Shown here: piece by piece, positions 1,784-64,000 of the stretch
Layout of the letters: each line of letters begins with the position of its first letter
Numbering within the stretch: position 1 is the first letter of the stretch
NCBI GenBank assembly: GCA_050943615.1
Contig: JBMNPN010000003.1
Location: forward strand, 1,058-65,057
Source: Coriobacteriales bacterium
GTDB lineage: Bacteria; Actinomycetota; Coriobacteriia; Coriobacteriales; QAMH01
Length of the DNA: 64,000 bases
Direction: 5' to 3'
Notes under the pieces: generated by a model
What the model was told of the DNA's origin: nothing
Seen by the model: the letters and a program-made list of their open reading frames with translations, nothing else
Databases searched by the model: none
Position numbers and translations under genes: made by a program

Positions 1784-2470
1784 CTAGTCGCGGTTCGAGG
1801 CAGAGGGCTTACCCTTGAATGCCTCGCGTTCCCTGATGGCGCCCTCGATGATCATCTTCTCGGCGTGCTCGAGCTCTTCGGGCGTGTTGACGTTCATGAA
1901 GACACCGCCGCGCGGCTCTGCCTTTGCAATCATGTCGCTCGTGAAATCGATGACACCAACCTGGTCGAACCAGGACGTCGCCTTGGTCTCCCCGTCTTCG
2001 ACCGCCTTTTTTATGGCAGGCAGGCACGTCGTGCGTCGGTACACCCCGTGGAACGGCTCGTAGCCGAACTGCGTCAGGGGAACGGCGACATCTTTGCCCT
2101 CGCTCATGAGCGCATTGAGCTCGGCGGCGATGAGGTTGCGGGAGGGAAAGATCATGTCGCAGGCGACGAGCGCAACGAAGTCCTTGCTGGCGGCGCTGAT
2201 GGCCGTGTAGACGCCACGCAGCGCGCCGCGTTTCTCATAGACATCGGTGACCAGGCGAATCTTGCCCAGGTCGACGAGGTCATCGAGAAAGCCGAGGTTC
2301 TCGGGCTCGTTGGTGGTGATCAGGAACTCGTCTGCCAGCGGGAGGAGGCGGTTGATGCCGCGCCAGATGAGCGGTTCGCCCAAAAAGGGAACGGTCGCCT
2401 TGCTGCGCCCCATTCTCCTCGACTCGCCACCTGCCTGTATGACGATGGTAAGATTCCCGCTCTTGCTCAT
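1784..2470 (-). CDS. mobA: Molybdenum cofactor guanylyltransferase
   Basis: 228 aa. N-terminus IVIQAGGESRRMGRSKATVPFLGEPLI matches the MobA nucleotide-binding signature (LAGGxxxRMGxxK). Size fits. Confidence 0.8.
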   Translation of the reverse strand: MSKSGNLTIVIQAGGESRRMGRSKATVPFLGEPLIWRGINRLLPLADEFLITTNEPENLGFLDDLVDLGKIRLVTDVYEKRGALRGVYTAISAASKDFVALVACDMIFPSRNLIAAELNALMSEGKDVAVPLTQFGYEPFHGVYRRTTCLPAIKKAVEDGETKATSWFDQVGVIDFTSDMIAKAEPRGGVFMNVNTPEELEHAEKMIIEGAIREREAFKGKPSASNRD

Positions 2471-18069: not shown

Positions 18070-18495
18070 TTGAGCAGCGAGTACGCAAGGTCGCGGAATT
18101 AGAATCCGCGCAACGTATTTCGTCATCTGACCAGATTCACGGTCAGACGGCCCATAGCTGTGCGCGAGCTCGTGCGACTCGATTCCCATGCAACGTATTT
18201 CGTCATCTGACCAGATTCACGGTCAGATGCCCCGTGGCTTTGCGCGAATCCGAGATTTCTCAAACTCATGCAATGTATATCGTCATCTGACCGCGATTCT
18301 GGTCAGATGGCCCGTGGCGTTGTTCGAAGGCGAGGGACCGCGAGGTCCGCGCAACGCATAGCGTCATCTGACCGCCAATCTGGTCAGACGGCCCGTGGCT
18401 TTGCGCGAATCCGAGATTTCTCAAACTCATGCAATGTATATCGTCATCTGACCGCGATTCCGGTCAGACGGCTCGTGGCTTTGCACGGAAACGTC
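18070..18495 (+). repeat. Family A tandem repeat array 1 (5 units, 80-81 nt period)
   Basis: Units start at 18110, 18190, 18270, 18351 and 18431. Conserved module: GCAACGTATTTCGTCATCTGACC-N8-GGTCAGATGGCCCGTGGCTTTGCGCGAA. It contains a 9-bp hairpin, CATCTGACC/GGTCAGATG, with a variable 8-nt loop. Confidence 0.85.
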
Positions 18496-26331: not shown

Positions 26332-26339
26332 CGACTTCA

Positions 26340-26655
26340 GCTCGCGCAACGTATTGCGTCATCTGACCGCGTTTCTGGTCAGATGGCCCGTAGCTGTGCG
26401 CGAACTCGTACAACTCAATTCCCATGCAACGTATTTCGTCGTCTGACCGAAGATCTGGTCAGATGGCCCGTGGCTTTGCGCGAATCCGAGATTTTCCGAT
26501 CCCGCGCAACGTATTTGGCCATCTGACCGCGAATCTGGTCAGATGGCCCGTGGCTTTGCGCGAACTCGTACAACTCAATTCCCATGCAACGCATAGCGCC
26601 ATCTGACCGCGAATCCGGTCAGATGGCTCGCAGGCGTGCGCGGCATTTCCGCCAT
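26340..26655 (+). repeat. Family A tandem repeat array 2 (4 units, 80 nt period)
   Basis: Units start at 26346, 26426, 26506 and 26586, beginning 15 nt after the pgi stop. Same hairpin module and same orientation as array 1. Confidence 0.85.
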
Positions 26656-36117: not shown

Positions 36118-36612
36118 GGTGTGGAGTTGACCGCTTGGGTCGCTTCGGTGCAGGTGACACATCGAAACCCGGGACTTGGTCGACCACCTGTGCCACCTCG
36201 ATGCAGCGTGCGCCGAAGCTCGGTAAGTGGTCGAAAGATAGTCGACCACCAGAACGACTTGGATGCAAATTCCGCATCGAGCCCCCTCACGTGGGCGGAT
36301 ACTCGCATCGAACCCAAGGACGTGGTCGACCACCAGGGGCGCTTCGATACACACCGCGATCCGAGACCTTCCACGCGCTCGCGCACTAAGGCCACTTGCG
36401 CGCAGAGTGCACGGAAGCCCTGTTCGTGTGCGCGCACCAGGGGCAGTTCCGCGCGAGAATCTGCGCACGAGCAGGAGTTCGGCACATTTCGGGCCCGATT
36501 CTTCGCAGAAGCCCCGCTCGTGTGCGCACACCAAGATGCCTTCTGCACGCCACGCGCAGAAGCCCGCTACGTGCGCGGCTGCTGAGAACGCTTCGGTACA
36601 GACCGCCGCGTA
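36118..36612 (+). repeat. Family B tandem repeat array 1 (~7 degenerate units of ~50-60 nt)
   Basis: Unit: GCATCGAAACCC-N5-GTGGTCGACCACC-AGG-GGC. Examples lie at 36159-36188 and 36305-36340. The distal units keep the frame but swap the palindromic core to GTGTGCGCGCACC (from 36427) or GTGTGCGCACACC (from 36520). Confidence 0.8.
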
Positions 36613-48649: not shown

Positions 48650-50245
48650 CTACATGTAGCCGATGATGCCCCACCAGCCAAAACCGACCGTGAAGAAGAT
48701 GAGCATCGTGATGATGCCGCAGATAAGGCCGATGGTCCACCACTTGCCCTGGGACACGTAGCCGCTGCCGAAGAAGACAGGGCCGGGACCGGAGCCGTAG
48801 TGGGTCAGGCAGCCCATGAGGTTGGAGAAGCAGCCGAGCAGCATGGCGGAGGCCAGCGGCGGGGCACCTGCGGCCAGGCAGACCATGAGGAATGCGCTGT
48901 ACATCGCCGAGACGTGCGCCGTGGCGGATGCGAACAGATAGTGCGAGATGAAGTAGATGACGCCGAGGATGATGAGGGCGACCAGCCAGGGCATGCCGCT
49001 CACGACGCCTGCCATGAGGTCGGAGAACCAGGGGATGAGACCCATGGTGTTGAGGTAGGTGGCCATCATGACGAGGGCGGCGAACCAGACCAAGGTATCC
49101 CAAGCGCCCTTCTCGGACTTGATGTCATCCCAGTTGAGAACGCCGAGCAGGAGGAGCAGCGACAGGCCGATGAAACCGGTGACCGTGGCGTTGAGCCCGA
49201 TGGAGGAGCCGGCGATCCAGAGGACGAGGATGATGATGAAGACCGCGATCATGAGTTTCTCGGAGGTCTTGACAGGGCCCATCTCCTGGAGCTTGGCATG
49301 AGCGAGGTCGGCCGCCTCGGGAGTCTCTTTGATCTCGGGCGGGAAGATCTTGAAGATGACCCAGGGAACGACGATCAGGCAGACGAGGCCGGGAACGCAG
49401 GCGGCAATCGCCCAGCCAGCCCAATCGATGTTGATGCCCGCAGCAGATGCCGCAAGAGAAACGGCCAACGGGTTTGCCGCCATGGCGGTCATGAACATCG
49501 AGGAGGTGATCATATCGGCCTGGAATGCGGTGACGTGCAGGTACGCGCCGATCTTGCGTCCAGTTCCGTCATCGGGGCGAGATCCGAAGACGCGCGAAAG
49601 CGACTGGACGATCGGGTAGATGACGCCGCCGGCACGAGCGGTGTTTGAGGGCATCGCCGTCGCGAGGACGAGGTCGGTCACGGCAAGGGAATAGGAAAGG
49701 CCCAAGGTCCTCTTGCCGAACTTGCTCATGAACAGGTACGCGATGCGGTTGCCAAGTCCAGTCTTGATGAAGCCGCGCGAGATGAAGAACGCGATGACGA
49801 TCAGCCAGATCGTGGTGTTGTGGAAACCGGAGAGCGTGTTGGTGATGAACGACGTAGAGGTCTTGCCGTCGTCGAGGATACCGGTGAGCATGATGACCGT
49901 CAGGGCGATAATCGAAACCGCGCCCATTGGCAGCGGCTTGGAAATCAGTCCGACGATGGTCGCCACGAAGATGGCAAAGAGATGCCAGCAGTTGACGGCG
50001 ACGTAATGAGCGGCTTCGGCATCGCTCATTCCCGCCTTGGTAATGAGGGTATTGAAAGCCCCGCCGTCACCGACAACATCCGCTGCGAAGGTCTCGAGCC
50101 CCGCAGGCATTGGAACGAACCAGAGGATGACGCCAACGAGGACCGTGATCACGAGCGCGATCCAGTTGAGTCCCCCCTTCTTCGGCTTGGCCTCTTTTTT
50201 GGCCTTCGCCGATTCGGCATGAAACGATTTTTCCGTATCAGCCAT
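48650..50245 (-). CDS. DASS-family (SLC13/CitT/TtdT-like) di/tricarboxylate anion transporter
   Basis: Start ATG 50245 (MADTEKSF), with AAGGGAG upstream. About 12+ TM. Motifs AMPSNTARAGG and SHYLFASATAHVSAMY. Confidence 0.85.
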   Translation of the reverse strand: MADTEKSFHAESAKAKKEAKPKKGGLNWIALVITVLVGVILWFVPMPAGLETFAADVVGDGGAFNTLITKAGMSDAEAAHYVAVNCWHLFAIFVATIVGLISKPLPMGAVSIIALTVIMLTGILDDGKTSTSFITNTLSGFHNTTIWLIVIAFFISRGFIKTGLGNRIAYLFMSKFGKRTLGLSYSLAVTDLVLATAMPSNTARAGGVIYPIVQSLSRVFGSRPDDGTGRKIGAYLHVTAFQADMITSSMFMTAMAANPLAVSLAASAAGINIDWAGWAIAACVPGLVCLIVVPWVIFKIFPPEIKETPEAADLAHAKLQEMGPVKTSEKLMIAVFIIILVLWIAGSSIGLNATVTGFIGLSLLLLLGVLNWDDIKSEKGAWDTLVWFAALVMMATYLNTMGLIPWFSDLMAGVVSGMPWLVALIILGVIYFISHYLFASATAHVSAMYSAFLMVCLAAGAPPLASAMLLGCFSNLMGCLTHYGSGPGPVFFGSGYVSQGKWWTIGLICGIITMLIFFTVGFGWWGIIGYM

Positions 50246-50687
50246 TACCCACTCCCTTCTTGCGTGAGCTTCCTCCTGAAGCTCTTGATGCTCGGGGGCA
50301 TTATTGAAAAATCTGCCTCCGGTGCCCTTGGGCACACCGTAGAAAGTACACGCTGTCTGGAAGCTTTCCTACACCCGCAAAGGGTGTTTTATTACCATAA
50401 ACCCCAGCTCAGAGCATGGGTGTGTAATTAAGTGACGACTGAGGGGCCGATTGCGAACCTCCTTTCCCGCATTGTGCGCGAGCACGCACCATGCCACCTG
50501 GCAGCTCTAGGACCTGTGTCATGAGAACGTTTTGGGACAAAGGGCTATAGTGGTCAGGTAAACCTTGTACTCGAACCAGTTTTTCGGTTTATGTGTAATG
50601 CCATAGGGGACTCAGGCGTCGCAGAACTTTTCGCGATGCTGCGCAATAAGCGCGCGGAAAGAAGGCGTCGTCAAAGGAGCGGCGATC

Positions 50688-52250
50688 ATGAACTCGAACA
50701 ACCGCAAGGTCGCCCTTGCTCTCGGACTGACCTTCGGTGCCATTTGGACAGGAGACTCTGTCTTTCTCGAAGCGCTGGGGCCAGCGTTTTCAGTGCTCTA
50801 CATGCGCTGTGCTTCTGCTGTGCTCTACCTGCTCTTTTTGCTGTGTGCAAAACTGTTCTACGAAAAACATGAACGCGCCGCAAAATCCCGCAGCGAGCAC
50901 CTTGTTGCTTCGGGGCGCTTTCTCATTCCGAGCTGCATCATCGGTCTCTGCTGCTATATTGCCGGAGGGACTCTCATTCTCTTCAACTTCGGCCATCCCT
51001 ACCTCGGGTTTGCGCTGACCAAGATCATTGGCGCTCCACTCACCATCGGCAGCGTGTACCTGTTCGGCTCCCCAGGACGCATTAACGTCATGAGGGATAC
51101 TGCCGAAAGCGTTTCGCTCTCTTTTTTCATCTTTGCCCTTGCACGCTTTTTGATGAGCTCGACTCTTATCGACAGCACCATCTCGGCTCTTGCAAGCTTC
51201 ATCCTTCTCGCAGCGGCAACGGCATTGATAACGCGGGAGACCGACGGCGTGATGAACCTGCTGAAAGACCTCGATGCGCGCAATGAGAAGCCCGAGGTCA
51301 TATTGCGACCACTGCACAAGATCATGAATGCCCCGCTTATCGCGGGCCTTATGCTCGTGAGCCTCATGCTCGGCTTTGTTCGGCACGGCCTTGGCTCCGT
51401 GAACCCGCCCGACGCTCTTATCATCCTCGTGTTCATGACACTTACGATGCTGGGACTCTACCTGTATAAAAAGGGACTCTCCCTAAGCCTGTTCTTTCAG
51501 GTCGGTGTCGTCTGCATGACCGCCGCCATCCTGCTCGAATCGCTTCTCGCGTTGAGCAAGTTCCCACTCGAAAACCTGCTTCTGTGGTATTCGTCGGCAG
51601 CATTCGAGACGACCTCAATGATGCTGTGCATCTGGACGTCCCATAATTCCACTCGGCCCTTCTTTGCGGCCATCATCTCGCGCACCATCATGGTCTTCGG
51701 ACATCTGCTCGGGACCCTGATCATCCTCGGAGAAATGCTTCTGTCCCTCGAAGTTCCCGGAGGCGGTACCATCGCCCCCTCCGTGCTCGTGTTCATCTTC
51801 ATCCTGATGCTCCTGTTCAGCTACCGTATCCCAACGCTGCAGGTTATCTTCTTCTCGCTGCCTCCCAACGATTTCGACGCCGAAGTCTCACCGGAGGGCG
51901 AGGCTCTCAACGCCGCCGCAGAGGGACGCAAGCCCGACGAGGTGCCAAACGCCAGCGCGGTCATGAGCAAAGAGGAGCAGTGGCGCGACCACCGGCGTCG
52001 GTCCTGCCGACGGGTCGCAGATACCTACTCTCTGACCAAGCGCGAGATCGATGTGCTCTACGAGCTTTCCGAAGGACGCTCAGTAAGCTACATGGCCGAC
52101 CGCTTCGTGCTCTCCCCCAACACCGTGAAGATGCACATCCGCCACATCTACCAAAAGCTCGACGTCCACAGCAAGCAGGAGGTCATCGACATCGTCAATG
52201 CAGCTGGGGAGCTGGTTGACGACGACGACCAGCAGAAAGTTGTAGACTAA
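50688..52250 (+). CDS. Membrane-embedded LuxR-family transcription regulator
   Basis: About 400 aa polytopic N-terminal domain. C-terminal HTH LTKREIDVLYELSEGRSVSYMADRFVLSPNTVKMHIRHIYQKLDV. Confidence 0.8.
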   Translation: MNSNNRKVALALGLTFGAIWTGDSVFLEALGPAFSVLYMRCASAVLYLLFLLCAKLFYEKHERAAKSRSEHLVASGRFLIPSCIIGLCCYIAGGTLILFNFGHPYLGFALTKIIGAPLTIGSVYLFGSPGRINVMRDTAESVSLSFFIFALARFLMSSTLIDSTISALASFILLAAATALITRETDGVMNLLKDLDARNEKPEVILRPLHKIMNAPLIAGLMLVSLMLGFVRHGLGSVNPPDALIILVFMTLTMLGLYLYKKGLSLSLFFQVGVVCMTAAILLESLLALSKFPLENLLLWYSSAAFETTSMMLCIWTSHNSTRPFFAAIISRTIMVFGHLLGTLIILGEMLLSLEVPGGGTIAPSVLVFIFILMLLFSYRIPTLQVIFFSLPPNDFDAEVSPEGEALNAAAEGRKPDEVPNASAVMSKEEQWRDHRRRSCRRVADTYSLTKREIDVLYELSEGRSVSYMADRFVLSPNTVKMHIRHIYQKLDVHSKQEVIDIVNAAGELVDDDDQQKVVD

Positions 52251-54189: not shown

Positions 54190-54412
54190 CTCAAGGAGAG
54201 CGCTCGACCACCTGAGGCACTTCGGCGCACGGCGCATCGAAACCCTCCAAGTGGTCGACCACCAGGGCCCTCTCGGCGCAATATCCGCATCGAACCCCGG
54301 TACGTGGGCGGATTTTCGCACCGAATTGCATCGAAACCCTTTATGTGGTCGACCACGAAAGCCACTTCGATGTTAGATGCGCCGAAAGCCGCTACGTGGT
54401 CGACTGGGAGTC
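54190..54412 (+). repeat. Family B tandem repeat array 2 (~5 units)
   Basis: Units include GCATCGAAACCCTCCAAGTGGTCGACCACCAGG (from 54233), GCATCGAACCCCGGTACGTGGGCGGAT (from 54287) and GCATCGAAACCCTTTATGTGGTCGACCAC (from 54328). Same orientation and same unit order as array 1. Confidence 0.8.
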
Positions 54413-55348: not shown

Positions 55349-56377
55349 CTACTTGCCGATTAGCGTCTCGGCAATCTGAACGGCATTGAGAGCGGCGCCT
55401 TTCCTGATCTGGTCCATGACGAGCCACAGGGCAAGGCCGTTCTCGACCGTGCGATCGATGCGAACGCGGCCCACGTAGATGTCATCAGTGCCCTGCTTGA
55501 GAGCGGGCATCGGGTAGACGAGGTTCTTGCAGTCGTCTTCGAGCGTGACGCCGGGAGCCGCCGCCAGTACCTCTCTGGCATGATCGGGCGTGATGGGCTC
55601 GTTGAACTCGACATTGAGCGATTCCGCATGGCAGCGCAGCACGGGCACGCGCACGCAGGTCGGCGCGACCTGGATGCTCTCGTCGCCGAAGATCTTCTGG
55701 GTCTCGACGACCATCTTCCACTCTTCCTTGTAGTAGTCGTCCTCGACCGGCACATCGATGTGCGGGATGACGTTGAAGGCGATCTGGTCGCTGAAGGCCT
55801 CGATGGTGAGTTCCTCGTCGTTCAGAAACTGGCGCGTCTGGTTGTAGAGCTCGTTCATAGCCTTCATGCCCGCGCCGCTTGCCGCCTGGTACGTGCTCAC
55901 GACGATGCGCTTGATGCCACCGGCCGCATCGGCGAGCGCCTTGAGCGGTACGACCATCTCGATGGTCGAGCAGTTGGGGTTGGCAATGACGCCGGAGTGC
56001 CAGGCGAGGTCGCCCGGGTTGACCTCGGGGACGACGAGCGGGACGTCGGTGTCCTGCCGAAACGCGCTCGAGTTGTCGATCATGACGCAGCCGGCATCGA
56101 CAACTGCCTGGCGAAACTGCTTAGATGTGGAGGCGCCAGCAGAGAAGAGCGCGATGTCGACGCCCTGGAAGCTGTCATCGGTCATCTCCTCGACCGTGAG
56201 CTCGCCGCCCTTGAAGGGAAGCTTCTTGCCAGCGGAGCGCGCAGACGCAAGCGCCTTGACCTTGGATGCCGGGAAGTCCCTCTGCTCGAGCACCTTGAGC
56301 ATCTCGCGACCGACCACGCCGGTGGCGCCAGCGACGGCAACGACGGGATTTGCGGGAATTTCCTTGTTCCAAGCCAT
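55349..56377 (-). CDS. asd: Aspartate-semialdehyde dehydrogenase
   Basis: Start ATG 56377 (MAWNKEIP). VAVAGATGVVG; active-site NPNCSTI; STYQAASGAG. Confidence 0.92.
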   Translation of the reverse strand: MAWNKEIPANPVVAVAGATGVVGREMLKVLEQRDFPASKVKALASARSAGKKLPFKGGELTVEEMTDDSFQGVDIALFSAGASTSKQFRQAVVDAGCVMIDNSSAFRQDTDVPLVVPEVNPGDLAWHSGVIANPNCSTIEMVVPLKALADAAGGIKRIVVSTYQAASGAGMKAMNELYNQTRQFLNDEELTIEAFSDQIAFNVIPHIDVPVEDDYYKEEWKMVVETQKIFGDESIQVAPTCVRVPVLRCHAESLNVEFNEPITPDHAREVLAAAPGVTLEDDCKNLVYPMPALKQGTDDIYVGRVRIDRTVENGLALWLVMDQIRKGAALNAVQIAETLIGK

Positions 56378-56507
56378 GGCAGATGTCCTTTCGCACAGAT
56401 ACGAAAAAGTCGTGGACTCACAATACCACCGCAACGTCGGAACTCGCACTTTGCCATACGCACCCGTTCACCAGCGCGCGCCAAACGGATGCCAGCGAGC
56501 AGGTGCC

Positions 56508-56711
56508 GCATCCGTTGCGCCCCCGAGGGGCGGCGGGGCTGCGGATGTGCTCAGCGCTCCGCTCCCGTTCGGGAGGGTCCCGCCCGCCGCTGCGGAACTC
56601 GCGCACTTCGTGCGCTCAAACAGTCCTCGCAAGGGCGCGGGCGGGACCCTCCCGAGCAGCTCCGCGAAATCGCCCATCCGCAGCCCCGCCGCCCCTCGGG
56701 GGCTTGCGAGC
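56508..56711. repeat. Family C hairpin element, copy A (MITE-like or invertible)
   Basis: 29-bp terminal inverted repeats GCCCCCGAGGGGCGGCGGGGCTGCGGATG (56519-56547 and 56675-56703), a 127-bp core, TTGC on both sides (56515-56518, 56704-56707), and conserved outer flanks. Confidence 0.8.
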
Positions 56712-56722
56712 TCTCTAATAAG

Positions 56723-56914
56723 TCAGCTCGTCTTTCCGGAGCTCCTATCAGCAATTACTTTATATCGCATCTGGGGAAGCCGTGGAGCACCGCAGTTGGG
56801 GCAGCAATCGTCCGCATCGGTGAGTTCGGCGCCACATAGATAGCAATGCTTGTCATCACCCGGTTCAAATGGCAATTTGCACTTTCCGCACCTCGTACAG
56901 AACATGCAACCCAT
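56723..56914 (-). CDS. Possible small zinc-ribbon protein
   Basis: 63 aa with three CxxC pairs: CTRCGKC, CYLCG, CPNCG. GGGAGG sits 12-13 nt upstream, which is long spacing. No other support. Confidence 0.4.
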   Translation of the reverse strand: MGCMFCTRCGKCKLPFEPGDDKHCYLCGAELTDADDCCPNCGAPRLPQMRYKVIADRSSGKTS

Positions 56915-57035
56915 GCTGCATCCGACCTCCCTCGCACTGCAATAAAGCGCGCCTCAGCGCCCTGGAGTCCAAAGTCCCGGGGCGCTGATGTTCATACCTG
57001 CGCACTTTCGACAGGCTCACATTAAGCGACAGACA

Positions 57036-58382
57036 CTATTGCGCCGCGGATTGCTGTTGCTGCAGGCGCTTTCTTGCCACGCCTCGACGCGGCATCGTGA
57101 AGGCAATTATCGCAGCAATTGCCATGGTGATGCCGACAATCAGGAAGGAGTTGCCAACAATGCCCGTAGCATCGATTACCACGCCTGCAAGCCACGGACC
57201 TAGATAGCGACCGACGATATTGATCGTGCCAACAACGCCGGTGCCCGTCGCCCGAATATCGTCATCATAGTATTCGCCTGCGCAGGTCATGATGACCGTG
57301 ATGACACCCGTACACGCGGTATTGGCAGCAACGAAGAAGTACAGGATGCCGAGATTCATCTCCACGCCCGAGGTTAGATAGAAGTAGTAGCCGAATCCGA
57401 AAATCGCGTTGAGAGCTACCATGAAGGCAATCAGGCTCTTGCGCTCCACGCGGTCGGAGATCTGTCCCAAGATGAGCTCGGTAATGATGCAGCACACGCC
57501 GGCAATCGAGATGGAAAGCGAGGCCTGAGCTAGATCGAACCCGACTGCCTGCACGCTGGCGACATAATACTGGGTCGCAGCCATGTAGCCGATTTGATAG
57601 ATGATGTAGAAAATGCCGAAATGCCAGGTAATGGGCATCTTGAGCACGCGCTTGATTGCGCTCTGGCCGTTGCCCTTTGCAGGCTCGTCACCCTTCTCGG
57701 CAGCAATCGTCGGCTCAGGAGCGGCTTGCACTCCATCGGGAGCACCGTACGGCGCAAGACCAAGTTCCTCGGGTCCCTCTCGGAAAGTCAGCATAATGAG
57801 AAGCGCGATAAGCGCGTAGATGACACCGAAAACGATGTAGGACATGGCCCAGCCAAAACTCGCGATAATCATCGGCGCGACAATGCCGAGTACTAGCGCT
57901 GAAAAGTTAGCGCCAGGGGTGATGAGCGACATGCCGAAGCCACGCTTGTGCGGGGCAAACCAGCGGGAAACGATCTTCGGCAGAATCGCCATGAGCAGGC
58001 CAGCAGTGCCACAACCGCAGATTGCCCAGGTGACGACCGCCGGACCAAGACCGAGCGGTGCGAACAGACCGAAAAGAATAGCGCCTACTGCAGCAAGACC
58101 GCAGGCAGAGGTGATAGCCTTGCGAGTGCCAATCTTATCGGCGAGCATACCCCAGGCAAAGGAAAGGCCCGAGTAGAAAATCATGTAAACCGAAGTGATG
58201 AGCCCAACTTCAGCATAGCTCACTCCGAGGGACTGGCGGATGGATTCGAGCGAAATCGCTGGTAGGCGCTGAGCGCTCAATACGATGAACTGGGTCAGAA
58301 AACCACCAAGGCAGATGATAAAAGCATAGTGAAAACCATGCTTTTTCTTTTGCGGAGATACGTCTTCTACCGTTTGCAACAT
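57036..58382 (-). CDS. MFS transporter
   Basis: 448 aa, 12 TM. AAGGAGG lies 7 nt upstream of the ATG. MFS-type loop motif GMLADKIGTRK. Confidence 0.85.
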   Translation of the reverse strand: MLQTVEDVSPQKKKHGFHYAFIICLGGFLTQFIVLSAQRLPAISLESIRQSLGVSYAEVGLITSVYMIFYSGLSFAWGMLADKIGTRKAITSACGLAAVGAILFGLFAPLGLGPAVVTWAICGCGTAGLLMAILPKIVSRWFAPHKRGFGMSLITPGANFSALVLGIVAPMIIASFGWAMSYIVFGVIYALIALLIMLTFREGPEELGLAPYGAPDGVQAAPEPTIAAEKGDEPAKGNGQSAIKRVLKMPITWHFGIFYIIYQIGYMAATQYYVASVQAVGFDLAQASLSISIAGVCCIITELILGQISDRVERKSLIAFMVALNAIFGFGYYFYLTSGVEMNLGILYFFVAANTACTGVITVIMTCAGEYYDDDIRATGTGVVGTINIVGRYLGPWLAGVVIDATGIVGNSFLIVGITMAIAAIIAFTMPRRGVARKRLQQQQSAAQ

Positions 58383-58489
58383 GGGTGTTCCTCCTTATTT
58401 CTAATGATTTTTCGAACTTGAGAAATTGCTAGCTATCCTCGTGCCCAATAGACACGAGGCCCAAGCCAGCAGAGATTCCGACGGTGCTC

Positions 58490-58942
58490 TCAGACCATGC
58501 GCTTGACCAAGCGCAGCAACCTCTCTCGCCGTTGCTCGTTGCGTTCGAGCTCGTTGTGCTTCTTCTTGGCAAGTGCATCGGCATTGAATTGAGCTCGTGC
58601 CCGTGCCGCTTCTTCGCTCTGCTCGAGCTCTGCGGCAGCGCGCAAGCGTCCCTCATCACTGATGAGCTTTTCTGCACGATGTTTGTGCTCTATCGGAACA
58701 TAGATATCTACGCCATAGTTCTTGTCCTTGCTTTGCGGGAGTGCAAGGCAGGCAACCGGATGATTCATCTTTAGCGTTCCAAGGTCCTTGCCGAAAAGAG
58801 GAATGCCCGCTTCCCTGAACAGGTAGGCCATGCCGTCGTACTGCCATTTCATCTTGAAATTTGTCAGGTATGTCCATGTCATTTGCTCGAACTGTTCAAG
58901 ATCAACGACGGTTGTCCAGCCTTTCTTTTGCTGGGGAAGCAT
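58490..58942 (-). CDS. Hypothetical protein (small alpha/beta N-domain plus charged coiled-coil tail)
   Basis: 150 aa, SD-like GAGAGGAAA upstream. Follows the Fe-S subunit gene after a 29-nt gap. No recognised motif. Confidence 0.5.
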   Translation of the reverse strand: MLPQQKKGWTTVVDLEQFEQMTWTYLTNFKMKWQYDGMAYLFREAGIPLFGKDLGTLKMNHPVACLALPQSKDKNYGVDIYVPIEHKHRAEKLISDEGRLRAAAELEQSEEAARARAQFNADALAKKKHNELERNEQRRERLLRLVKRMV

Positions 58943-58971
58943 GGCATTTCCTCTCTTCGCATTTGAAGGTA

Positions 58972-59304
58972 TTACGGCATAAAGCAGGTGACCTTCGAAG
59001 CGCCCAGCTCGACCATCCGCTTTCCGAGCTCGTCGACGGGGAGAATCTCAATCACCTTTGCCAGGCAGTGCATTTCACATGGAGCGACCTTGCCGGCCTC
59101 GCGTCTACCTGCACATAAATCGCAAAGCCGGGAGGGAACAGGGACGTAGTCCCACTCCCACTGCCCTCCAAGCTTTTTGGGACCGATCTGCTGAACCTGG
59201 ATTCCCCATTCATCAGCAGGTAGTCCCTTTTCCTTGAGACAGGAGACCTCACAAGTTTCGCAGCCTGTGCACAGGCCATAGTTGATGAGCATTCCGTATT
59301 CCAT
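58972..59304 (-). CDS. 2[4Fe-4S] electron-transfer small subunit
   Basis: Start ATG 59304 (MEYGMLINYG), with AGGAGG 6 nt upstream and 10 nt after the large-subunit stop. CTGCETCEVSC plus CDLCAGRREAGKVAPCEMHC. Confidence 0.8.
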   Translation of the reverse strand: MEYGMLINYGLCTGCETCEVSCLKEKGLPADEWGIQVQQIGPKKLGGQWEWDYVPVPSRLCDLCAGRREAGKVAPCEMHCLAKVIEILPVDELGKRMVELGASKVTCFMP

Positions 59305-59314
59305 GACTTCCCTC

Positions 59315-61603
59315 CTAACCAAGGCTCTCGACTTTGCGGATCTTGCAGATGCCGTTCTTGTACGGCGCGCCATATCCCGTGACCGAAACACTCTCGTGCG
59401 GAATCAGGTTGTTCGCATTTGCCTTCCAGACTCCGTAGAGGTTGGGTGCCTCACCGTCCTGCTCGGGGAACCACCAGGCATGCTCGACATGGATGAACTT
59501 GTCGTTAACCTCTTCGGTGAGATGCGCTTTCTGCGTCATCTTTCCAAGCGGGCTTTCCACCTCGACCCAATCGCCTTCTTCGATGCCATACTTCTCGGCA
59601 GTAACAGGATTAATCGTCACGAGTGGCCAGGGGTGCAGGCGTCGCATCGTCGTGCCCTTCTGACGGTGCTCGGAATGGAACATGGAGATATGACGTCCGC
59701 CAGTGGTGTAGTACAGCGGATACTCCTCCGCCAGATCAGGTCGCGAGATATGGCTGTACTCAGGCTCTTCGTAATAAGGAACCGGCTCCTCGCCAAAGCC
59801 CGCCAGAACTGGGGACCACAGCTCGATCTGACCGGACGTAGTGTCGAACCCAGGCTTTCCATCTGGACGGAGCAGCCCCTTCTCGTATTTTCGATACTCA
59901 TAGCCCGACATCTTTGCCGGAACCGCCTTGACATCGTCGAGACCATAGCCATACGTGTCCTTGAGCATCTTGTCGAAGAACTTGTCGGGCGTATCCATGT
60001 CCTTCCAGAGTTCGGGACGCATGCGCTTGCCCATATCGATGAGGATCTCAAGGTCGGACTTGGTGTTGGGATTGTGCACTGCCTTGTTCATGGCACCGAT
60101 GAAGTGCTGGTTGCGACCATAGTTGGGCGTCACGAGTCCCTCATGTTCAGCAAAAGTCGAAAGCGGCAAAACCAAGTCGGCCAACCCCATGATCGTCGGC
60201 GTCATGAAGATGTCCTGGACGACGGTGAACTCGAGGTCTTTCATGGCCTCGTACCATCGTTTGGGCTGGTCGGCCATGCATGCGAGCGGATTGCTTCCGA
60301 TAATCCAGCACATGCGGAGCTTGTAATATTCGGGACGGTCTGCCCATTTCCCCTCGAGCCAGTTCAGAAGCGTGTCACCCTGGACGCCGCCCATTGCTGC
60401 GCCGGCATTGAACAGAGCATACTTGCCATCGAGATCTACGATGTGCTTTGCTGCCATCTCTGGGGAAATGGTGTCGGACATGTCATAGCGCCACTGGCCG
60501 ATGAAGCTCGTCGGTTTGGTGATGGTCACACCGCCCGGCACGTCGATGTATCCGCAAATAGCGACAAGTGCGAGGAAGCATTGAGCTGCCTGAGTCGAGG
60601 CTTTGGACTGGTCAAGTGCTACGCCCCATGTAGCAGTAGAGGGAGCATTCGTCGCAAACGCACGTGCGGCACCAACCAGCTGCTCGGGATCGACCCAAGA
60701 CACCTCCTGGACCTTCTCCGGAGTCCACTCTTCAACAGCTTCGGCAAGTTGATCGAATCCGTAGCACCACTTGTCGACAAACTCGTGATTGTAGAGGTCT
60801 TCTTTGATAACGACGCGCAGAAGCCCCATGCCCACCGCCGCATCGGTGCCAGGCCTGAGTTGCAGATGATACTCTGCATGTGCGCCAAGCCAGGTCAAAC
60901 GCGGGTCAATGGTGATGATCTTTGAGCCGCGCTTCATAAGATCGATAATGCTATGGCCAAAAAACCCGTCTGGACTTGAATAAAGCGGATCCTTGCCCCA
61001 TACGATAATGTACTTGGGCGCCTCCCAACCAGGATGGTCGTAGCGGTCTTCCCAATACTGCGCCCAGTCGATCTCGGGAACCCCAGCACCGAGCAGGTAG
61101 TTGGTAATCGTAGCGCGCGGACCATAGCACGCCTCGCCGGAAAATGCATAGGTGGATGCACCGTTACACGTGTTGCAGACGGCAGGACCATACACGGGGG
61201 CATACAACGTCGACTCACGCCCTGTACCAGTCAGGGTAAAGATAGTCTCCGCACCCCACTTGTCCCAGATTTCGCGAATCTTTTGCTCGAGAAGGTCGTA
61301 TGCCTCGTCCCAACTGATCTTTACCCACGCATCTTGCCCGCGTTTATCGCGGTCACGCTTCATCGGACTTGTCAAACGCTCGGGACTGTACATGATCTCA
61401 TCAAGCGCCAGACAGCGGGGGCACACGCGACCGTTGGTCACGGGATTATCGGGATCCCCTTCTACCTTGATGAGCTTGTTGTCCTTGACGTACAGAATGA
61501 GACCACATCCAACGGGGTGGTCCCCCGGCGGCGACCAGGCGCAAGTGCGCACTTTCATCACGCCATCCTCTTCGGTGACGTAGGGCTTTATTGCCTCAGC
61601 CAT
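59315..61603 (-). CDS. Cytoplasmic molybdopterin (bis-MGD) oxidoreductase, DMSO-reductase superfamily, substrate unknown
   Basis: 762 aa. AGGAGGAGG lies upstream. No twin-arginine signal (N-terminus MAEAIKPYVTEEDG). MopB-like body (ITIDPRLTWLGAHAEYHLQLRPGTDAA, IGSNPL). C-terminal beta-barrel (ITINPVTAEKYGIEEGDWVEVES). Confidence 0.88.
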   Translation of the reverse strand: MAEAIKPYVTEEDGVMKVRTCAWSPPGDHPVGCGLILYVKDNKLIKVEGDPDNPVTNGRVCPRCLALDEIMYSPERLTSPMKRDRDKRGQDAWVKISWDEAYDLLEQKIREIWDKWGAETIFTLTGTGRESTLYAPVYGPAVCNTCNGASTYAFSGEACYGPRATITNYLLGAGVPEIDWAQYWEDRYDHPGWEAPKYIIVWGKDPLYSSPDGFFGHSIIDLMKRGSKIITIDPRLTWLGAHAEYHLQLRPGTDAAVGMGLLRVVIKEDLYNHEFVDKWCYGFDQLAEAVEEWTPEKVQEVSWVDPEQLVGAARAFATNAPSTATWGVALDQSKASTQAAQCFLALVAICGYIDVPGGVTITKPTSFIGQWRYDMSDTISPEMAAKHIVDLDGKYALFNAGAAMGGVQGDTLLNWLEGKWADRPEYYKLRMCWIIGSNPLACMADQPKRWYEAMKDLEFTVVQDIFMTPTIMGLADLVLPLSTFAEHEGLVTPNYGRNQHFIGAMNKAVHNPNTKSDLEILIDMGKRMRPELWKDMDTPDKFFDKMLKDTYGYGLDDVKAVPAKMSGYEYRKYEKGLLRPDGKPGFDTTSGQIELWSPVLAGFGEEPVPYYEEPEYSHISRPDLAEEYPLYYTTGGRHISMFHSEHRQKGTTMRRLHPWPLVTINPVTAEKYGIEEGDWVEVESPLGKMTQKAHLTEEVNDKFIHVEHAWWFPEQDGEAPNLYGVWKANANNLIPHESVSVTGYGAPYKNGICKIRKVESLG

Positions 61604-61784
61604 CTTGATGTCCTCCTCCTTCTCTTTCGCTGCACGAACCTTGCATGCCGCTTACATGCAGGCAGTCAGCGGACATGCGATTAACGTGAAAATATCGAGA
61701 GAAGGAGATACGACAAAGCCACCCCAGGGGTTGTTTTTCACAAACCGAGGGTGCTGATTCGGGTTGTCTTTTCGCGTCAGAGGC

Positions 61785-61799
61785 AACCCTCAGAGGGTT
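61785..61799. promoter_or_regulatory. Perfect palindrome AACCCTC-A-GAGGGTT between the LuxR gene and the molybdoenzyme operon
   Basis: 7-1-7 inverted repeat. More GGGTT/AACC half-sites occur at 61730-61770. Candidate regulator-binding site. Confidence 0.3.
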
Positions 61800-61823
61800 A
61801 TATACAAGTCTGACCTGCGCTTA

Positions 61824-63314
61824 TCAAGAGATGCCCCTGAGAGCGTCATCGATAAGGTCAAGAAGCTCCTCGCGTGAATGAACCTGAAGTTTGGCATAGA
61901 TTCTTCGCACGTGCCCCTTGGACGTGTTATAGGAGATGCCAAGTTCCTCAGCGATAAAAGACGTGCTTCTGCCACGTCCCAGATATGCGAGAACTTCGCG
62001 CTCGCGCGCAGTGAGCCCCGCGCGGCCGGCAAGATTGTCATATGCGAGCTTGCGCCGCTCTTCAACGTTTGTTTCTGGTCTGGATTCGGCTTGAAGCGTC
62101 TCTTCGCGGAACGTCTTTTCGAGGGCAGATTCAATAGTACGTTCATCGAGGACAAGGAACGACATCATAAGCACGAGAACTACCAGAACAATGCTGATCG
62201 TGCTCATAAACGAGAACAGCCCTGGAACGAGCGACGATGCGCAGACGACAATGAGCTGTCCAGCAGTGGTGCCAAGGGCAGATGCACCGCGACCAAAACC
62301 GAAAACACATACAGGACTCATCGTCGTCTGGCCGGCGATATTGGCAAACAGGCACCAGAGCGTGAGCACGAAAATATTGTAAGCACAGTTCACGATGATA
62401 GCCTGCAGGGAGAGAAACTCGGGACCGAGCAAAGGTGCGAGCAGCAGGCCAAGAGCAGCAACGATAATCACGGGATAATAGATTTTACTCAGGTCAAAGC
62501 GCTTCACGCTGTTTACTAGGGCAAAGACGACCACGAGAGCCGCTGAAACAATCAGGGTCACAAACACGCTCATCGCCGCCTGAGCACGCACGACTTCAAT
62601 CTCGCCTTGCAACGTGAACGTCCCCTTTGTAATCCCAACAGCAAGTGAGAAAACGGCGACAAAAAGCACACACCGCAGAAAGAACCCACGAGGAAGAAGC
62701 TTGATGGGGATCGCGTCGGTCTTGTCTATTTCACGGCTATCGACAGGACGCAGGAGCGCAAGCAACATAGCGCAGATGAGAAACAAGGAAATTACAAGAA
62801 CCGAAAGCCACCGATCGAGGCCAACGCAGACAAAGTAAAGCAGATTGGCGAGCATGCCCGAAGCAAAGGTTGTGAAGAAGACGCTCATGGAGTCAAGTGA
62901 GCTATACATATAGCCTATGCGCAGGCAGAGAAACGAAGTACCGACGCCGGTACCAATACCGAGCAGGGCAAAGGTCAAGCCATTTATCGGAAGCCCAGAA
63001 CCACCCATGAGAAAGAAAGTGCACGCAGCAGCAAGCACTGACATGGCAGGCACAAGCGGGCCGCGGCTAATGGTAGGTTCGACGCGCCGCGAAAAAGCAC
63101 CGCAGAGAATGAGGACAATGGTAAGCGGAACACCCGAATACAGATAGAGCAGGTTATTGGCATTTCCCTGCAGCAGTTCCTGCGAAGACGGAACAACTGC
63201 ACTTCCGCCCATCATGAAGAGAATCCAAGCGCTGTAGAAGCCGAGGCTGCAATATTTGAGCCCCGGCCATTGGCTATCGATTCGCTCAAGACTCCTCTTC
63301 CACAGCTCAGCCAC
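61824..63314 (-). CDS. Membrane-embedded LuxR-family transcription regulator
   Basis: GTG start 63314. About 400 aa polytopic domain. C-terminal HTH LTAREREVLAYLGRGRSTSFIAEELGISYNTSKGHVRRIYAKLQV. Confidence 0.8.
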   Translation of the reverse strand: MAELWKRSLERIDSQWPGLKYCSLGFYSAWILFMMGGSAVVPSSQELLQGNANNLLYLYSGVPLTIVLILCGAFSRRVEPTISRGPLVPAMSVLAAACTFFLMGGSGLPINGLTFALLGIGTGVGTSFLCLRIGYMYSSLDSMSVFFTTFASGMLANLLYFVCVGLDRWLSVLVISLFLICAMLLALLRPVDSREIDKTDAIPIKLLPRGFFLRCVLFVAVFSLAVGITKGTFTLQGEIEVVRAQAAMSVFVTLIVSAALVVVFALVNSVKRFDLSKIYYPVIIVAALGLLLAPLLGPEFLSLQAIIVNCAYNIFVLTLWCLFANIAGQTTMSPVCVFGFGRGASALGTTAGQLIVVCASSLVPGLFSFMSTISIVLVVLVLMMSFLVLDERTIESALEKTFREETLQAESRPETNVEERRKLAYDNLAGRAGLTAREREVLAYLGRGRSTSFIAEELGISYNTSKGHVRRIYAKLQVHSREELLDLIDDALRGIS

Positions 63315-63425
63315 GTTGTCTCATACCTCTTCTCTTGTAAGGAATTGCAGCGTCTCGCCTTTCGAAAGTGCAGGTCATTTATATCAATTCGATTGTAGTG
63401 GGTATTCAACCGTTGAAATAGTACA

Positions 63426-63629
63426 GCATCCGTTTGTGCCCCGAGGGGCGGCGGGGATGCGGATGGGCGATTTCGCGGAGCTGCTCGGAAGGGCCCCGCC
63501 CGCGTCCTTGCGAGGACTGTTTGAGCGCACGAAGTGCGCGAGTTCCGCAGCGGCGGGCGGGACCCTCCCGAGCGGGAGCGGAGCGCTGAGCACATCCGCA
63601 TCCCCGCCGCCCCTCGGGGGCTTGCGAGC
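63426..63629. repeat. Family C hairpin element, copy B (core inverted relative to copy A)
   Basis: Terminal inverted repeats at 63438-63465 and 63593-63621. The 127-bp core (63466-63592) equals the reverse complement of the copy A core with 4 mismatches. The outer flanks have the same orientation as in copy A. Confidence 0.8.
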
Positions 63630-63679
63630 CCCTACACGCTCATCGCGCGCTGCATCTGCCCAGAGTTGCTAAAAATCTA

Positions 63680-63709
63680 TCATATGATTGTTATTATACA
63701 GTCATATGA
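63680..63709. promoter_or_regulatory. Paired TCATATGA palindromes upstream of the XRE gene
   Basis: TCATATGA at 63680-63687 and 63702-63709, 22 bp centre to centre, flanking TTATTATACA in a very AT-rich stretch. Confidence 0.35.
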
Positions 63710-63761
63710 GTGTTATTTTTATTCATGCGATTGCAGTTCTCCAATCAATTACGAGGTCTTC

Positions 63762-64000
63762 ATGACGGTAGAAATCACAGCAGACGAGATCAAGGAAACG
63801 CGCGAGCGATACGGCCTGACGCAACGGTCGTTTGCAACGCTTCTCGGCATTGGCGAGGCGAGCATGGTGCGCTACGAAAAGGGGGGCACGCCTAGCAAGG
63901 CTAATGCGAACCTACTCCTTGCCGCAAGAGACCCCCGGTTCATGAAAGGCTGCCTCGAGCGAGAGGGACAGGCTATTCCCGAAGCGCAACGCGCGAAAGC
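63762..64000 (+). CDS. XRE-family HTH protein, N-terminal part (runs off the right edge)
   Basis: Own translation: MTVEITADEIKETRERYGLTQRSFATLLGIGEASMVRYEKGGTPSKANANLLLAARDPRFMK... GAGG lies 7 nt upstream. HTH of the MqsA/antitoxin-associated type. Confidence 0.7.
   Translation, partial: MTVEITADEIKETRERYGLTQRSFATLLGIGEASMVRYEKGGTPSKANANLLLAARDPRFMKGCLEREGQAIPEAQRAK

Follow-up and report, generated by a model that had tools for sequence, protein, structure and literature searches.

We examined a 64,000-nucleotide stretch of DNA (hereafter, the window) and detected a 6.6-kb cassette of five genes on the minus strand, in the order luxR, MopB, Fe-S, unk150 and MFS according to the open reading frame list (Table 1). 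All the open reading frames described in the original prediction were recovered on that strand and at the same positions, as were the two palindromic repeats (Family C) that it placed on either side of the cassette. The five-gene module was kept in at least 20 Eggerthellaceae species at the orthologous loci that we compared. The full set is not obligatory, since 7 orthologous MopB-FeS pairs occurred without MFS and unk150, and 6 out of those 7 also had no LuxR match. In the gene proposed as mobA we detected an NTP transferase domain of the MobA-like type (E=7e-31), which agrees with that assignment.

Table 1. Features of the cassette and its surroundings, with positions in the window.
Feature	Position	Strand	Description
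MobA-like gene (mobA)	1784-2470		NTP transferase domain
Palindromic repeat copy A	56503..56711, core 56519-56701	.	Between cassette end and asd start
Cys-rich double zinc-ribbon-like ORF	56723..56914	-	63 aa, own GGGAGG ribosome-binding site
Intrinsic terminator candidate	56946..57008	-	After MFS gene; nested GC-rich hairpin, GCGCGC end, then UUUAUU
MFS transporter	57036..58382	-	448 aa, MFS_1 E=2.7e-52
unk150	58490..58942	-	150 aa, small orphan family
Fe-S electron-transfer subunit	58972..59304	-	110 aa, 8 Cys
MopB catalytic subunit	59315..61603	-	762 aa, bis-MGD, DMSO-reductase superfamily; 3 MopB Pfam domains
luxR-MopB spacer	61604..61823	-	220 bp, candidate operator/promoter elements
Ribosome-binding site			GAAGGAGGAGGA, in luxR-MopB spacer
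TAnnnT -10-like hexamer	near 61690-61695		Conserved, in luxR-MopB spacer
Two AAARACAACCC boxes	61761-61771 and 61728-61738		33 bp apart, in luxR-MopB spacer
Candidate operator palindrome AACCC-N5-GGGTT	61785-61799		In luxR-MopB spacer
Membrane LuxR-type regulator	61824..63314	-	496 aa, GerE E=1.8e-14
Palindromic repeat copy B	63421..63629, core 63439-63621	.	Between luxR start and divergent MqsA-like HTH gene

The Pfam domains of MopB were Molybdop_Fe4S4, Molybdopterin and Molydop_binding. We found neither a twin-arginine motif nor a signal peptide in its N-terminus (MAEAIKPYVTEEDGVMKVRTC), in line with the earlier description of an oxidoreductase without Tat signal. Four cysteines (C21, C33, C61 and C64) were predicted as ligands of the FS0 [4Fe-4S] cluster, and the candidate Mo ligand, Cys159, aligned with Cys173 of PsrA (2vpw). 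The FS0 motif of the MopB subgroup was C..WSPPG-D-H-PVG-C, whereas 5 out of the 6 characterised members compared had GCHxGC. The nearest PDB relative was acetylene hydratase 2e7z (E=1.4e-63; 218 bits for the whole protein, with the similarity confined to three local pieces), and no NCBIfam equivalog was reached by MopB, as none of the scores came to half of its curated cutoff. In PMC7028382, acetylene hydratase is given as the characterised enzyme nearest to catechol dehydroxylases.

The comparison with characterised enzymes was based on the first 400 residues of each and left out Gs Vadh, (+)-Eldh2, Eadh1 and Eadh2. Over the N-terminal ~400 aa, MopB was 41-46% identical to (+)-Eldh1, Cldh/(-)-Eddh, Gp Hcdh, Dodh and Eadh3, and 59% identical to G. 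pamelaeae C1877_01450; its identity to Ellagibacter F8C90_01555 was 80% over 392 N-terminal aa. The N-terminal ~360-400 aa scored 303-340 bits against characterised and 344-673 bits against most uncharacterised Gordonibacter/Ellagibacter enzymes, and one Eggerthella-type enzyme gave 31% identity and 132 bits (N-terminus). In a NJ distance tree of 400 aa, built without support values, MopB was located inside the Gordonibacter-type clade, and the tree and scores together group it there and not with a housekeeping reductase. Also in agreement with the original prediction, the sequence does not reveal the substrate: the highest identity to any characterised member compared was 46% (N-terminal 380 aa), against a cutoff of 75-80% for same-function homologues in PMC11887054. 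The authors of that paper take 419 sequences as catechol dehydroxylase homologues by SSN, and the Ellagibacter ortholog F8C90_01555 is one of them.

The Fe-S gene was found directly downstream of the MopB gene at all the orthologous loci compared. The cysteines of its product (C12, C15, C18, C22, C61, C64, C76 and C80) are sufficient for two [4Fe-4S] clusters, as originally proposed for the 110-aa protein, and none of the eight was lost in any of the 11 orthologs or 3 paralogous partners compared. This subunit showed weak similarity to DmsB and TtrB N-termini (NCBIfam).

No Pfam or NCBIfam family was matched by unk150, apart from sub-threshold matches to DUF2007. Its AF2 model (pLDDT 78.5) showed an alpha/beta domain of ~95 aa and, C-terminal to it, a long charged helix, and matched no PDB fold at E<1. 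The family included 57 clusters, each at least 49% identical, and was represented by 18 sequences among 1.84 billion proteins; K58, N60, H61, P62, D73, N75 and G77 were among its invariant residues. The unk150 and MFS genes were both present in 20 loci and both absent in 7, with no locus carrying one alone, and their adjacency was also seen beside distant paralogs. The unk150 protein is possibly a transporter-associated or ligand-binding accessory. The MFS protein was nearest to organic-anion (ACS-type) subfamilies, its top NCBIfam subfamilies, all below cutoff, being D-galactonate, phosphoglycerate, L-lactate and aromatic acid/H+ symport, and it was 66-86% identical across orthologous cassettes. 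It is predicted to import the substrate; PMC12771579 proposes this role for MFS transporters beside cytoplasmic dehydroxylases.

The LuxR protein combined about 11-12 hydrophobic/TM helices in residues 20-390 (hydropathy) with a GerE HTH at residues 434-486 (Pfam). At 20 orthologous loci a LuxR gene preceded MopB, with an identity of 33-56%; inducers may therefore differ across the orthologous cassettes. We predict that the LuxR protein acts as substrate sensor and activator of the adjoining operon. In PMC9734109, the 10-12-TM LuxR family is shown genetically to activate catechol dehydroxylase genes. Within the luxR-MopB spacer, the AACCC-N5-GGGTT palindrome had 1 match (0.03 expected) and the AAARACAACCC box had 2 matches (0.02 expected), with none outside the spacer in the 64-kb window. 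An alignment of 16 orthologous upstream regions showed conservation of the palindrome, of the proximal box and of the TA column, and we infer from these patterns that the motifs may serve as operator and promoter elements.

At the downstream end, the minus-strand fold of positions 56915-57040 (-49.6 kcal/mol, z=-1.9) contained a hairpin that could possibly be an intrinsic terminator, though a weak candidate that was not called by the consensus scan. The zinc-ribbon ORF gave weak DZR/Zn_Ribbon_1 matches (E about 0.004-0.008). Its implied membership of the unit was not supported by conservation, as no homolog was found 3' of MFS in the cassettes of other species and the ORF was seen in the source organism only; it probably lies outside the module.

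PMC7028382, PMC12771579, PMC9734109 and PMC11887054 describe the Gordonibacter-type enzymes as lacking a Tat signal, smaller than the Eggerthella enzymes and paired with a small 4Fe-4S partner, with genes beside MFS and under 10-12-TM LuxR control; the members named in PMC7028382, PMC11585353, PMC11887054 and PMC12771579 are Dodh, Cldh/(-)-Eddh, (+)-Eldh1/2, Gp Hcdh, Gs Vadh and Eadh1-3. The dehydroxylase template described in the original prediction matches this literature, and each of its sequence-level features is present in the cassette: a cytoplasmic bis-MGD subunit of ~750-800 aa without Tat signal, a small Fe-S partner gene immediately downstream, and an adjoining MFS transporter and membrane LuxR regulator. 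The cassette enzyme also shares the clade, by similarity and distance tree, and the Mo-ligand Cys within an ACYGPR motif. It differs in belonging to a separate orthogroup, which also includes Ellagibacter F8C90_01555 and proteins of many gut and rumen MAGs, in an FS0 that uses an upstream Cys and has Asp in place of the usual second Cys, and in the extra conserved 150-aa gene, as the published descriptions consulted mention two subunits and not this gene. The Eggerthella-type enzymes (Dadh, Cadh, El Hcdh) belong to the same superfamily, with probably the same reaction class and the same kind of 12-TM LuxR regulator, but they are 1000-1200 aa long, are exported by Tat, and come with a membrane anchor, a four-cluster subunit and a number of accessory genes for maturation. 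DadR, CadR and HcdR, as described in PMC9734109, match our regulator by architecture (N-terminal polytopic membrane domain and C-terminal GerE HTH), and their genes adjoin the regulated dehydroxylase; unlike dadR, described there as divergent, luxR is co-directional with the operon and upstream of it.

Based on these comparisons, we consider it likely that the segment encodes a catechol dehydroxylase module of the Gordonibacter type, inducible by its substrate and from an orthogroup without a characterised member. The membrane-embedded LuxR regulator would detect a phenolic compound and switch on a promoter in the spacer via the AACCC-containing boxes, leading to transcription of the operon MopB-FeS-unk150-MFS. 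The MFS transporter would bring in the substrate, probably a phenolic acid in anionic form, and a cytoplasmic heterodimer of the bis-MGD subunit (one [4Fe-4S], Mo on Cys159) and the 2x[4Fe-4S] subunit, fed by an electron donor, would reductively strip one hydroxyl group off a catechol-type ring. Since the 150-aa protein is co-inherited with MFS, its part would be at the transporter or the substrate and not in maturation of the enzyme. Such enzyme sets are of the kind by which gut Eggerthellaceae take hydroxyl groups off plant and host catechols; the family is already well described and the cassette adds an uncharacterised member, so the finding is real yet unsurprising.

That MopB serves as a housekeeping molybdoenzyme of respiration or assimilation (formate dehydrogenase, or a thiosulfate/polysulfide, nitrate or DMSO reductase) is extremely improbable: the generic similarity to Fdh-alpha (267 bits) and PhsA (221 bits), and the generic JGI name "anaerobic selenocysteine-containing dehydrogenase", are effectively overruled by the sub-cutoff equivalogs, the missing Tat signal, membrane anchor and selenocysteine codon, and a MopB far nearer to the Gordonibacter dehydroxylases, with variable presence and genomic contexts. 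We regard as unlikely that the same gene family and sensor-transporter-enzyme layout serve another chemistry, namely a non-catechol substrate or a non-dehydroxylating reaction. Examples would be hydration, as in acetylene hydratase, or the reduction of another xenobiotic functional group. About a dozen of the 215 unique clade sequences are characterised in the literature, and the low identity to those compared and the unusual FS0 motif leave room for such a reaction. A non-reductive or non-catechol reaction is also possible because the closest structural relative is a hydratase. The Pelobacter acetylenicus enzyme is similarly cytoplasmic, with a single [4Fe-4S], bis-MGD and a Cys metal ligand, but it is monomeric without Fe-S partner, non-redox and tungsten-dependent, whereas the cassette keeps a two-cluster redox partner, which favours a redox reaction. 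Catechol dehydroxylation is further favoured by a module layout equal to that of characterised dehydroxylases, and by the published reports, in which all the Gordonibacter-type members tested to date are catechol or urolithin dehydroxylases.

As to the origin of this dehydroxylase-like module, it is quite unlikely to be a recently acquired mobile unit with the Family C palindromes as its ends, either hairpin-bounded or composite-transposon-like. The repeat cores are 183 nt each and 97% complementary, with copy B inverted relative to copy A (97% identical inverted vs 72% direct) and the outer flanks in direct orientation (left GCATCCGTT.., right GCTTGCGAGC); copy A folds as a single long hairpin (-168 kcal/mol, z=-10.6) and matched no Rfam family. 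The short-read contigs of the source organism end within the repeats, the GC drop starts just after copy A and stops at copy B, and two relatives examined (L160 and L161) have different genes immediately upstream of asd. The reading of the repeats as marks of a mobile cassette, implied by the original prediction, is not supported: neither the cassette flanks of all the 30+ other species nor the relatives L160-L163 carry them, and we found no gene for a transposase, integrase or recombinase between or beside them. Other dispersed palindromic families occur in the window, so the bracketing may reflect intergenic repeat spread, with the right flank seen to 64000 only. At the DNA level, each of the sampled cassettes is only 69-79% identical to this one, hence no recent donor is visible. 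The cassette still looks foreign, since orthologous cassettes mostly equal the GC of their host. In a related genome (Asd 86%), the orthologous cassette has native GC, lies in equal orientation 17 kb upstream of asd, and fits long residence with local rearrangement; a foreign origin in the source organism is therefore plausible but unproven. Sliding-window GC and codon usage, checks suggested originally, showed the cassette to be the lowest-GC 6.6-kb stretch of the window (54.6%, vs 60.5% for positions 1-56500 and a minimum of 57.6%, sd 1.55 points, among 999 other 6.6-kb windows), and its genes to have a GC3 of 0.58-0.67, compared with about 0.75-0.90 for most housekeeping genes of the window. 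The direction of the predicted GC contrast was thus correct, but its size was somewhat too large; clpB had 64.1% GC and a GC3 of 0.88. Finally, shorter low-GC patches were observed at 18-20, 24-25, 37-39 and 50-51 kb.

The ORFs and Pfam matches agreed with the genes and gene order of the original prediction for the minus strand at 56.7-63.3 kb, and a MobA-like gene was found where mobA had been placed. The zinc-ribbon ORF, which had been put forward as a possible member of the cassette, was not conserved in the orthologous loci. The proteins of the window correspond to MGI60319xx (locus tags ACOX69_), from a MAG labelled "Coriobacteriales bacterium", and the surroundings of the cassette are ordinary chromosome, with dnaK, dnaJ, clpB, aspartokinase, asd and fumarate reductase. 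The molybdopterin oxidoreductase (MopB) was the sole MopB enzyme among the window ORFs scanned. Its N-terminus is MAEAIKPYVTEEDGVMKVRTC, with the Fe-S motif from residue 21 onward and no twin-arginine (RR) signal, and its size falls within the ~740-840 aa of Gordonibacter-type enzymes. The domain search found no DmsC/NrfD-type membrane-anchor gene in the cassette. The eight Cys of the small partner protein (FeS) were invariant across 11 orthologs and three paralogous partners, a number that would be enough for two [4Fe-4S] clusters.

Features of the cassette, its surroundings and the repeats of the window
Feature	Coordinates	Strand	Length	Remarks
MobA-like gene	1784-2470
222-nt repeat units	18102-18489; 26339-26644
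Tandem units	36159-36463; 54234-54382		~50-nt units	two intergenic regions 18 kb apart
DASS-family Na_sulph_symp transporter	48650-50335	minus
Second membrane LuxR-type regulator	50688-52250	plus		GerE plus ~10-12 hydrophobic segments
Family C palindrome, copy A	56503-56711
LuxR-type protein		minus	496 aa	C-terminal GerE HTH by Pfam; ~11-12 hydrophobic helices ahead of HTH
MopB, molybdopterin oxidoreductase		minus	762 aa	Pfam Fe4S4 E=4.6e-11, Molybdopterin 2e-30, Molydop_binding 6.7e-18
FeS, Cys-rich protein		minus	110 aa	starts 10 nt downstream of MopB
unk150		minus	150 aa	belongs to no family
MFS transporter		minus	448 aa	MFS_1 by Pfam
Cys-rich zinc-ribbon ORF		minus	63 aa
AAARACAACCC boxes	61761-61771; 61728-61738
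AACCC-N5-GGGTT palindrome	61785-61799
Family C palindrome, copy B	63421-63629
AT-rich hairpin	63680-63709		12 bp	perfect; upstream of HTH_3 / MqsA-like gene
HTH_3 / MqsA-antitoxin-like gene	63762-64000			begins just past copy B, continues beyond window end

The closest PDB match of MopB was acetylene hydratase (E=1.4e-63). The two enzymes aligned, however, only in three local stretches (218 bits in total) and were not full-length collinear, and acetylene hydratase has no redox partner, whereas MopB has the dedicated FeS protein. MopB reached less than half of every cutoff of the NCBIfam equivalogs for formate dehydrogenase and for thiosulfate, nitrate, DMSO and TMAO reductases: 267 against Fdh-alpha (cutoff 666), 221 against PhsA (cutoff 694), and lower scores for all the remaining equivalogs. 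Tight clustering with a housekeeping reductase, the outcome that had been set against the original prediction, was not found; the equivalog scores lay below cutoff and the nearest relatives were catechol dehydroxylases.

To compare MopB with catechol dehydroxylases, we took as references the N-terminal 400 residues that Supplementary Table 4 of PMC11887054 gives for each enzyme; the table comprises 419 sequences that its authors took from an SSN as catechol dehydroxylase homologues, among them the Ellagibacter ortholog F8C90_01555. Scores over ~360-400 aa were 303-673 bits for the characterised Gordonibacter/Ellagibacter enzymes and for most of the uncharacterised ones, against only 132 bits for one Eggerthella-type enzyme. 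In a distance tree of the partial sequences, MopB fell in a tight orthogroup within the Gordonibacter-type clade, with Gp Hcdh on the neighbouring branch. The Ellagibacter ortholog is not Eadh3, which is F8C90_00245. The locus tags of the orthogroup and of the nearest Gordonibacter paralogs had no match in the searchable literature.

Identity of MopB to reference enzymes
Enzyme	Status	Identity	Remarks
Ellagibacter isourolithinifaciens F8C90_01555	uncharacterised	80%	N-terminal 392 aa
G. pamelaeae C1877_01450	uncharacterised	59%	partial reference, ~400 aa
G. pamelaeae C1877_12885	uncharacterised	54%	partial reference, ~400 aa
Gordonibacter sp. 28C C1878_05740	uncharacterised	52%	partial reference, ~400 aa
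(+)-Eldh1	characterised	46%	maximum among characterised enzymes compared
Cldh/(-)-Eddh	characterised	44%
Gp Hcdh	characterised	43%
Dodh	characterised	43%
Eadh3	characterised	41%
Eggerthella-type enzyme	unnamed reference	31%

Passages of PMC7028382, PMC11887054 and PMC12771579 place acetylene hydratase, among characterised enzymes, nearest to the catechol dehydroxylases, a bis-MGD clade, and describe the Gordonibacter members as smaller enzymes with no Tat signal, a small 4Fe-4S partner and adjacent MFS transporters; a passage of PMC9734109 names 10-12-TM LuxR regulators as the activators of catechol dehydroxylase genes. The template set out in the original prediction agrees with this literature, and the cassette has the MopB, FeS, MFS and membrane LuxR components described there and no Tat signal. 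These comparisons support the cassette enzyme as a probable new addition, so far uncharacterised, to the known Gordonibacter-type family of catechol dehydroxylases. The criterion for same-function homologues stated in PMC11887054 is 75-80% identity, so no substrate can be transferred to MopB: identity to a characterised enzyme reached 46% at most, in a set without Gs Vadh, (+)-Eldh2 and Eadh1/2. It had been anticipated that the substrate could not be read from the sequence, and the comparison bears this out.

Within MopB, Cys159 lies in a conserved ACYGPR motif and aligns with Cys173 of Thermus PsrA, which we take to be the Mo ligand; by offset it is equivalent to Cys141 of acetylene hydratase. 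At the N-terminal [4Fe-4S] cluster (FS0), the MopB subgroup has the motif C21-AWSPPG-D28-H29-PVG-C33 ... C61-x2-C64, unlike the characterised catechol dehydroxylases, 5/6 of which have T/S..GC-H-xGC at this position among the members compared. The FS0 Cys set was completely lost in some orthologs from Hadza MAGs and in the characterised Gp Hcdh, so FS0 loss recurs within the clade. In one such ortholog (L013, 81% identical) and in Gp Hcdh, the Cys ligands are replaced by W/D/N or S/Y/N/N.

One scan of species-representative genomes recovered 32 Eggerthellaceae-type loci, 31 of them at 75-89% identity to MopB. They included Ellagibacter isourolithinifaciens DSM 104140 (76% over the full length), RUG-series MAGs (83-89%), which presumably come from rumen, chicken-gut Aphodovivens and Hadza human-gut MAGs. 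The order LuxR-MopB-FeS-unk150-MFS was kept in 20 loci. Another 7 had only MopB-FeS, and exactly these lacked both unk150 and MFS; no orthologous locus had one of the two without the other. In one metagenomic strain (L163, 449-6828), ~6.8 kb with PqqD-like and NTP_transf_5 genes splits LuxR from MopB. Another locus (L166, 1-8800) has two tandem MopB-FeS-unk150-MFS modules with a LysR-type regulator between them and no LuxR, so the regulator type is interchangeable in the subclade.

The family of the 150-aa protein unk150 is small, with 57 clusters out of 5.8 billion, all at least 49% identical, and 18 representatives among 1.84 billion proteins. For its more distant members, too, an MFS gene comes immediately downstream, and the neighbouring MopB paralogs share only 43-60% identity with the MopB of the window. 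In the AF2 model (pLDDT 78.5), a long helix extends from the C-terminal side of a small alpha/beta domain; the model had no significant match in the PDB, and two sub-threshold hints pointed to a DUF2007-like fold. Since unk150 also accompanies the CH-motif paralog of L166, it is not a marker of the subgroup with the D-H Fe-S motif. We infer that the function of unk150 is linked to transport or to the handling of substrate; this is the most tentative part of the model.

The spacer between luxR and MopB (220 bp) contains an AACCC palindrome and two AAARACAACCC boxes spaced 33 bp apart; neither motif recurs elsewhere in the 64 kb, for which 0.03 and 0.02 matches, respectively, would be expected. 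Across orthologous loci the palindrome was kept, as were the proximal box and a TAnnnT hexamer. The position of the proximal box is that of a class II activator site overlapping the -35 region, and the box is a candidate operator. Scans for sigma-70 and terminator consensus gave no score above shuffle expectation; a weak terminator-like hairpin lies 3' of the MFS gene. The second membrane LuxR gene of the window is divergent from the DASS-family transporter gene, and the two may act as a further pair of sensor and transporter, one that lacks an adjacent enzyme gene.

Catechol dehydroxylases determine which dietary polyphenols, lignans, urolithin precursors, neurotransmitters and drugs get converted in the gut, and the majority of those predicted have no substrate assigned. 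Induction of such enzymes by their substrate typically exceeds 100-fold. The orthogroup is a sensible target for deorphanisation because it is widespread, from Ellagibacter to human (including Hadza) and chicken gut and the RUG-series MAGs. The published G. urolithinfaciens expression system (pXD80, PMC11887054) is directly applicable, and a cultured strain, DSM 104140, carries an ortholog. The unk150/MFS pair and the operator motifs offer handles, through reporter fusions for the inducer and knock-outs for the accessory protein. The cassette opens no new category of biology; its additions are modest, namely a co-inherited orphan unk150/MFS pair, conserved operator-like motifs and flip/flop palindromes.

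The lower GC content of the cassette proved real by sliding-window GC and GC3, but the contrast was smaller than the spot counts of the original prediction had implied: 54.6% vs 60.5% in the rest of the window, the lowest of 999 other 6.6-kb windows being 57.6%. GC3 was 0.58-0.67 in the five cassette genes and mostly ~0.75-0.90 in housekeeping genes, and the drop begins just past repeat copy A and extends to copy B. Cassette and flank GC agreed in most species; in the window and in two of the compared loci (L002, L018) the cassette lay 6-11 points below its flanks, which suggests acquisition from a donor of ~54% GC. Several observations argue against a recent insertion. DNA identity to all sampled cassettes was only 69-79%, and a related genome (Asd 86% identical) has the orthologous cassette, of native composition and unchanged orientation, on the scaffold that carries asd, 17 kb upstream of that gene. 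In a further relative (Asd 85%), an ABC transporter takes the place upstream of asd. As relatives carry different genes there, the region upstream of asd is a variable neighbourhood in the clade, and horizontal replacement at the window locus is plausible. After its cassette, the related genome (L162, 12795-19384) has another LuxR gene and a MopB of 802 aa with a Tat signal, accompanied by a Fer4 subunit and two DmsC anchors; the window lacks this 17-kb block, which extends to asd.

The two copies of the Family C palindrome flank the cassette. Their 183-nt cores (56519-56701 and 63439-63621) are 97% identical when inverted and 72% in direct orientation, and each core by itself is long and imperfectly palindromic (RNA fold -168 kcal/mol, z=-10.6), with noise only in an Rfam search of 56300-64000. 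The bases just outside the cores are in direct orientation, GCATCCGTT.. on the left and GCTTGCGAGC on the right (10/10). The copies are thus flip/flop isomers: they share short outer flanks in direct orientation, and the palindromic core between these flanks is inverted, a pattern suggesting that the two arms of a long hairpin recombined. No transposase, integrase or recombinase domain occurred in the genes that the repeats enclose, the repeats themselves are non-coding, and no Family C was found beside the orthologous cassettes of other species. Contigs of the window's organism showed no cassette-free allele (empty site). Since the window also has other palindromic repeat families, we take Family C to be a palindrome dispersed over intergenic sites and not a demonstrated vehicle of the cassette. 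A 27-mer scan of metagenome contigs for further copies gave 0 matches, in a collection apparently without this organism, and an 18-mer scan gave 120, each of 18-30 nt and due to chance. Short-read contigs from the organism of the window terminate inside the repeats, which is no proof of many copies, as two inverted copies suffice. In a bolder reading, to which we give little credence, unk150 would work with the MFS importer as a partner not recognised before, or would serve as a third subunit or in handling the substrate, and would define a distinct cytoplasmic dehydroxylase subclass for a new class of gut phenolics; separately, the flip/flop palindromes could be active recombination or insulator elements; if true, active palindromes would explain the reshuffling of such modules in Eggerthellaceae chromosomes.

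Finally, two other kinds of repeat were observed in the window. One consists of ~50-nt tandem units (GCATCGAAACCC..GTCGACCACC..). The other is a repeat family of 222-nt units with CATCTGACC..GGTCAGATG hairpins, in direct and inverted matches, which bracket an 8-kb stretch including low-GC patches at 18-20 and 24-25 kb and form a second repeat-bracketed interval.
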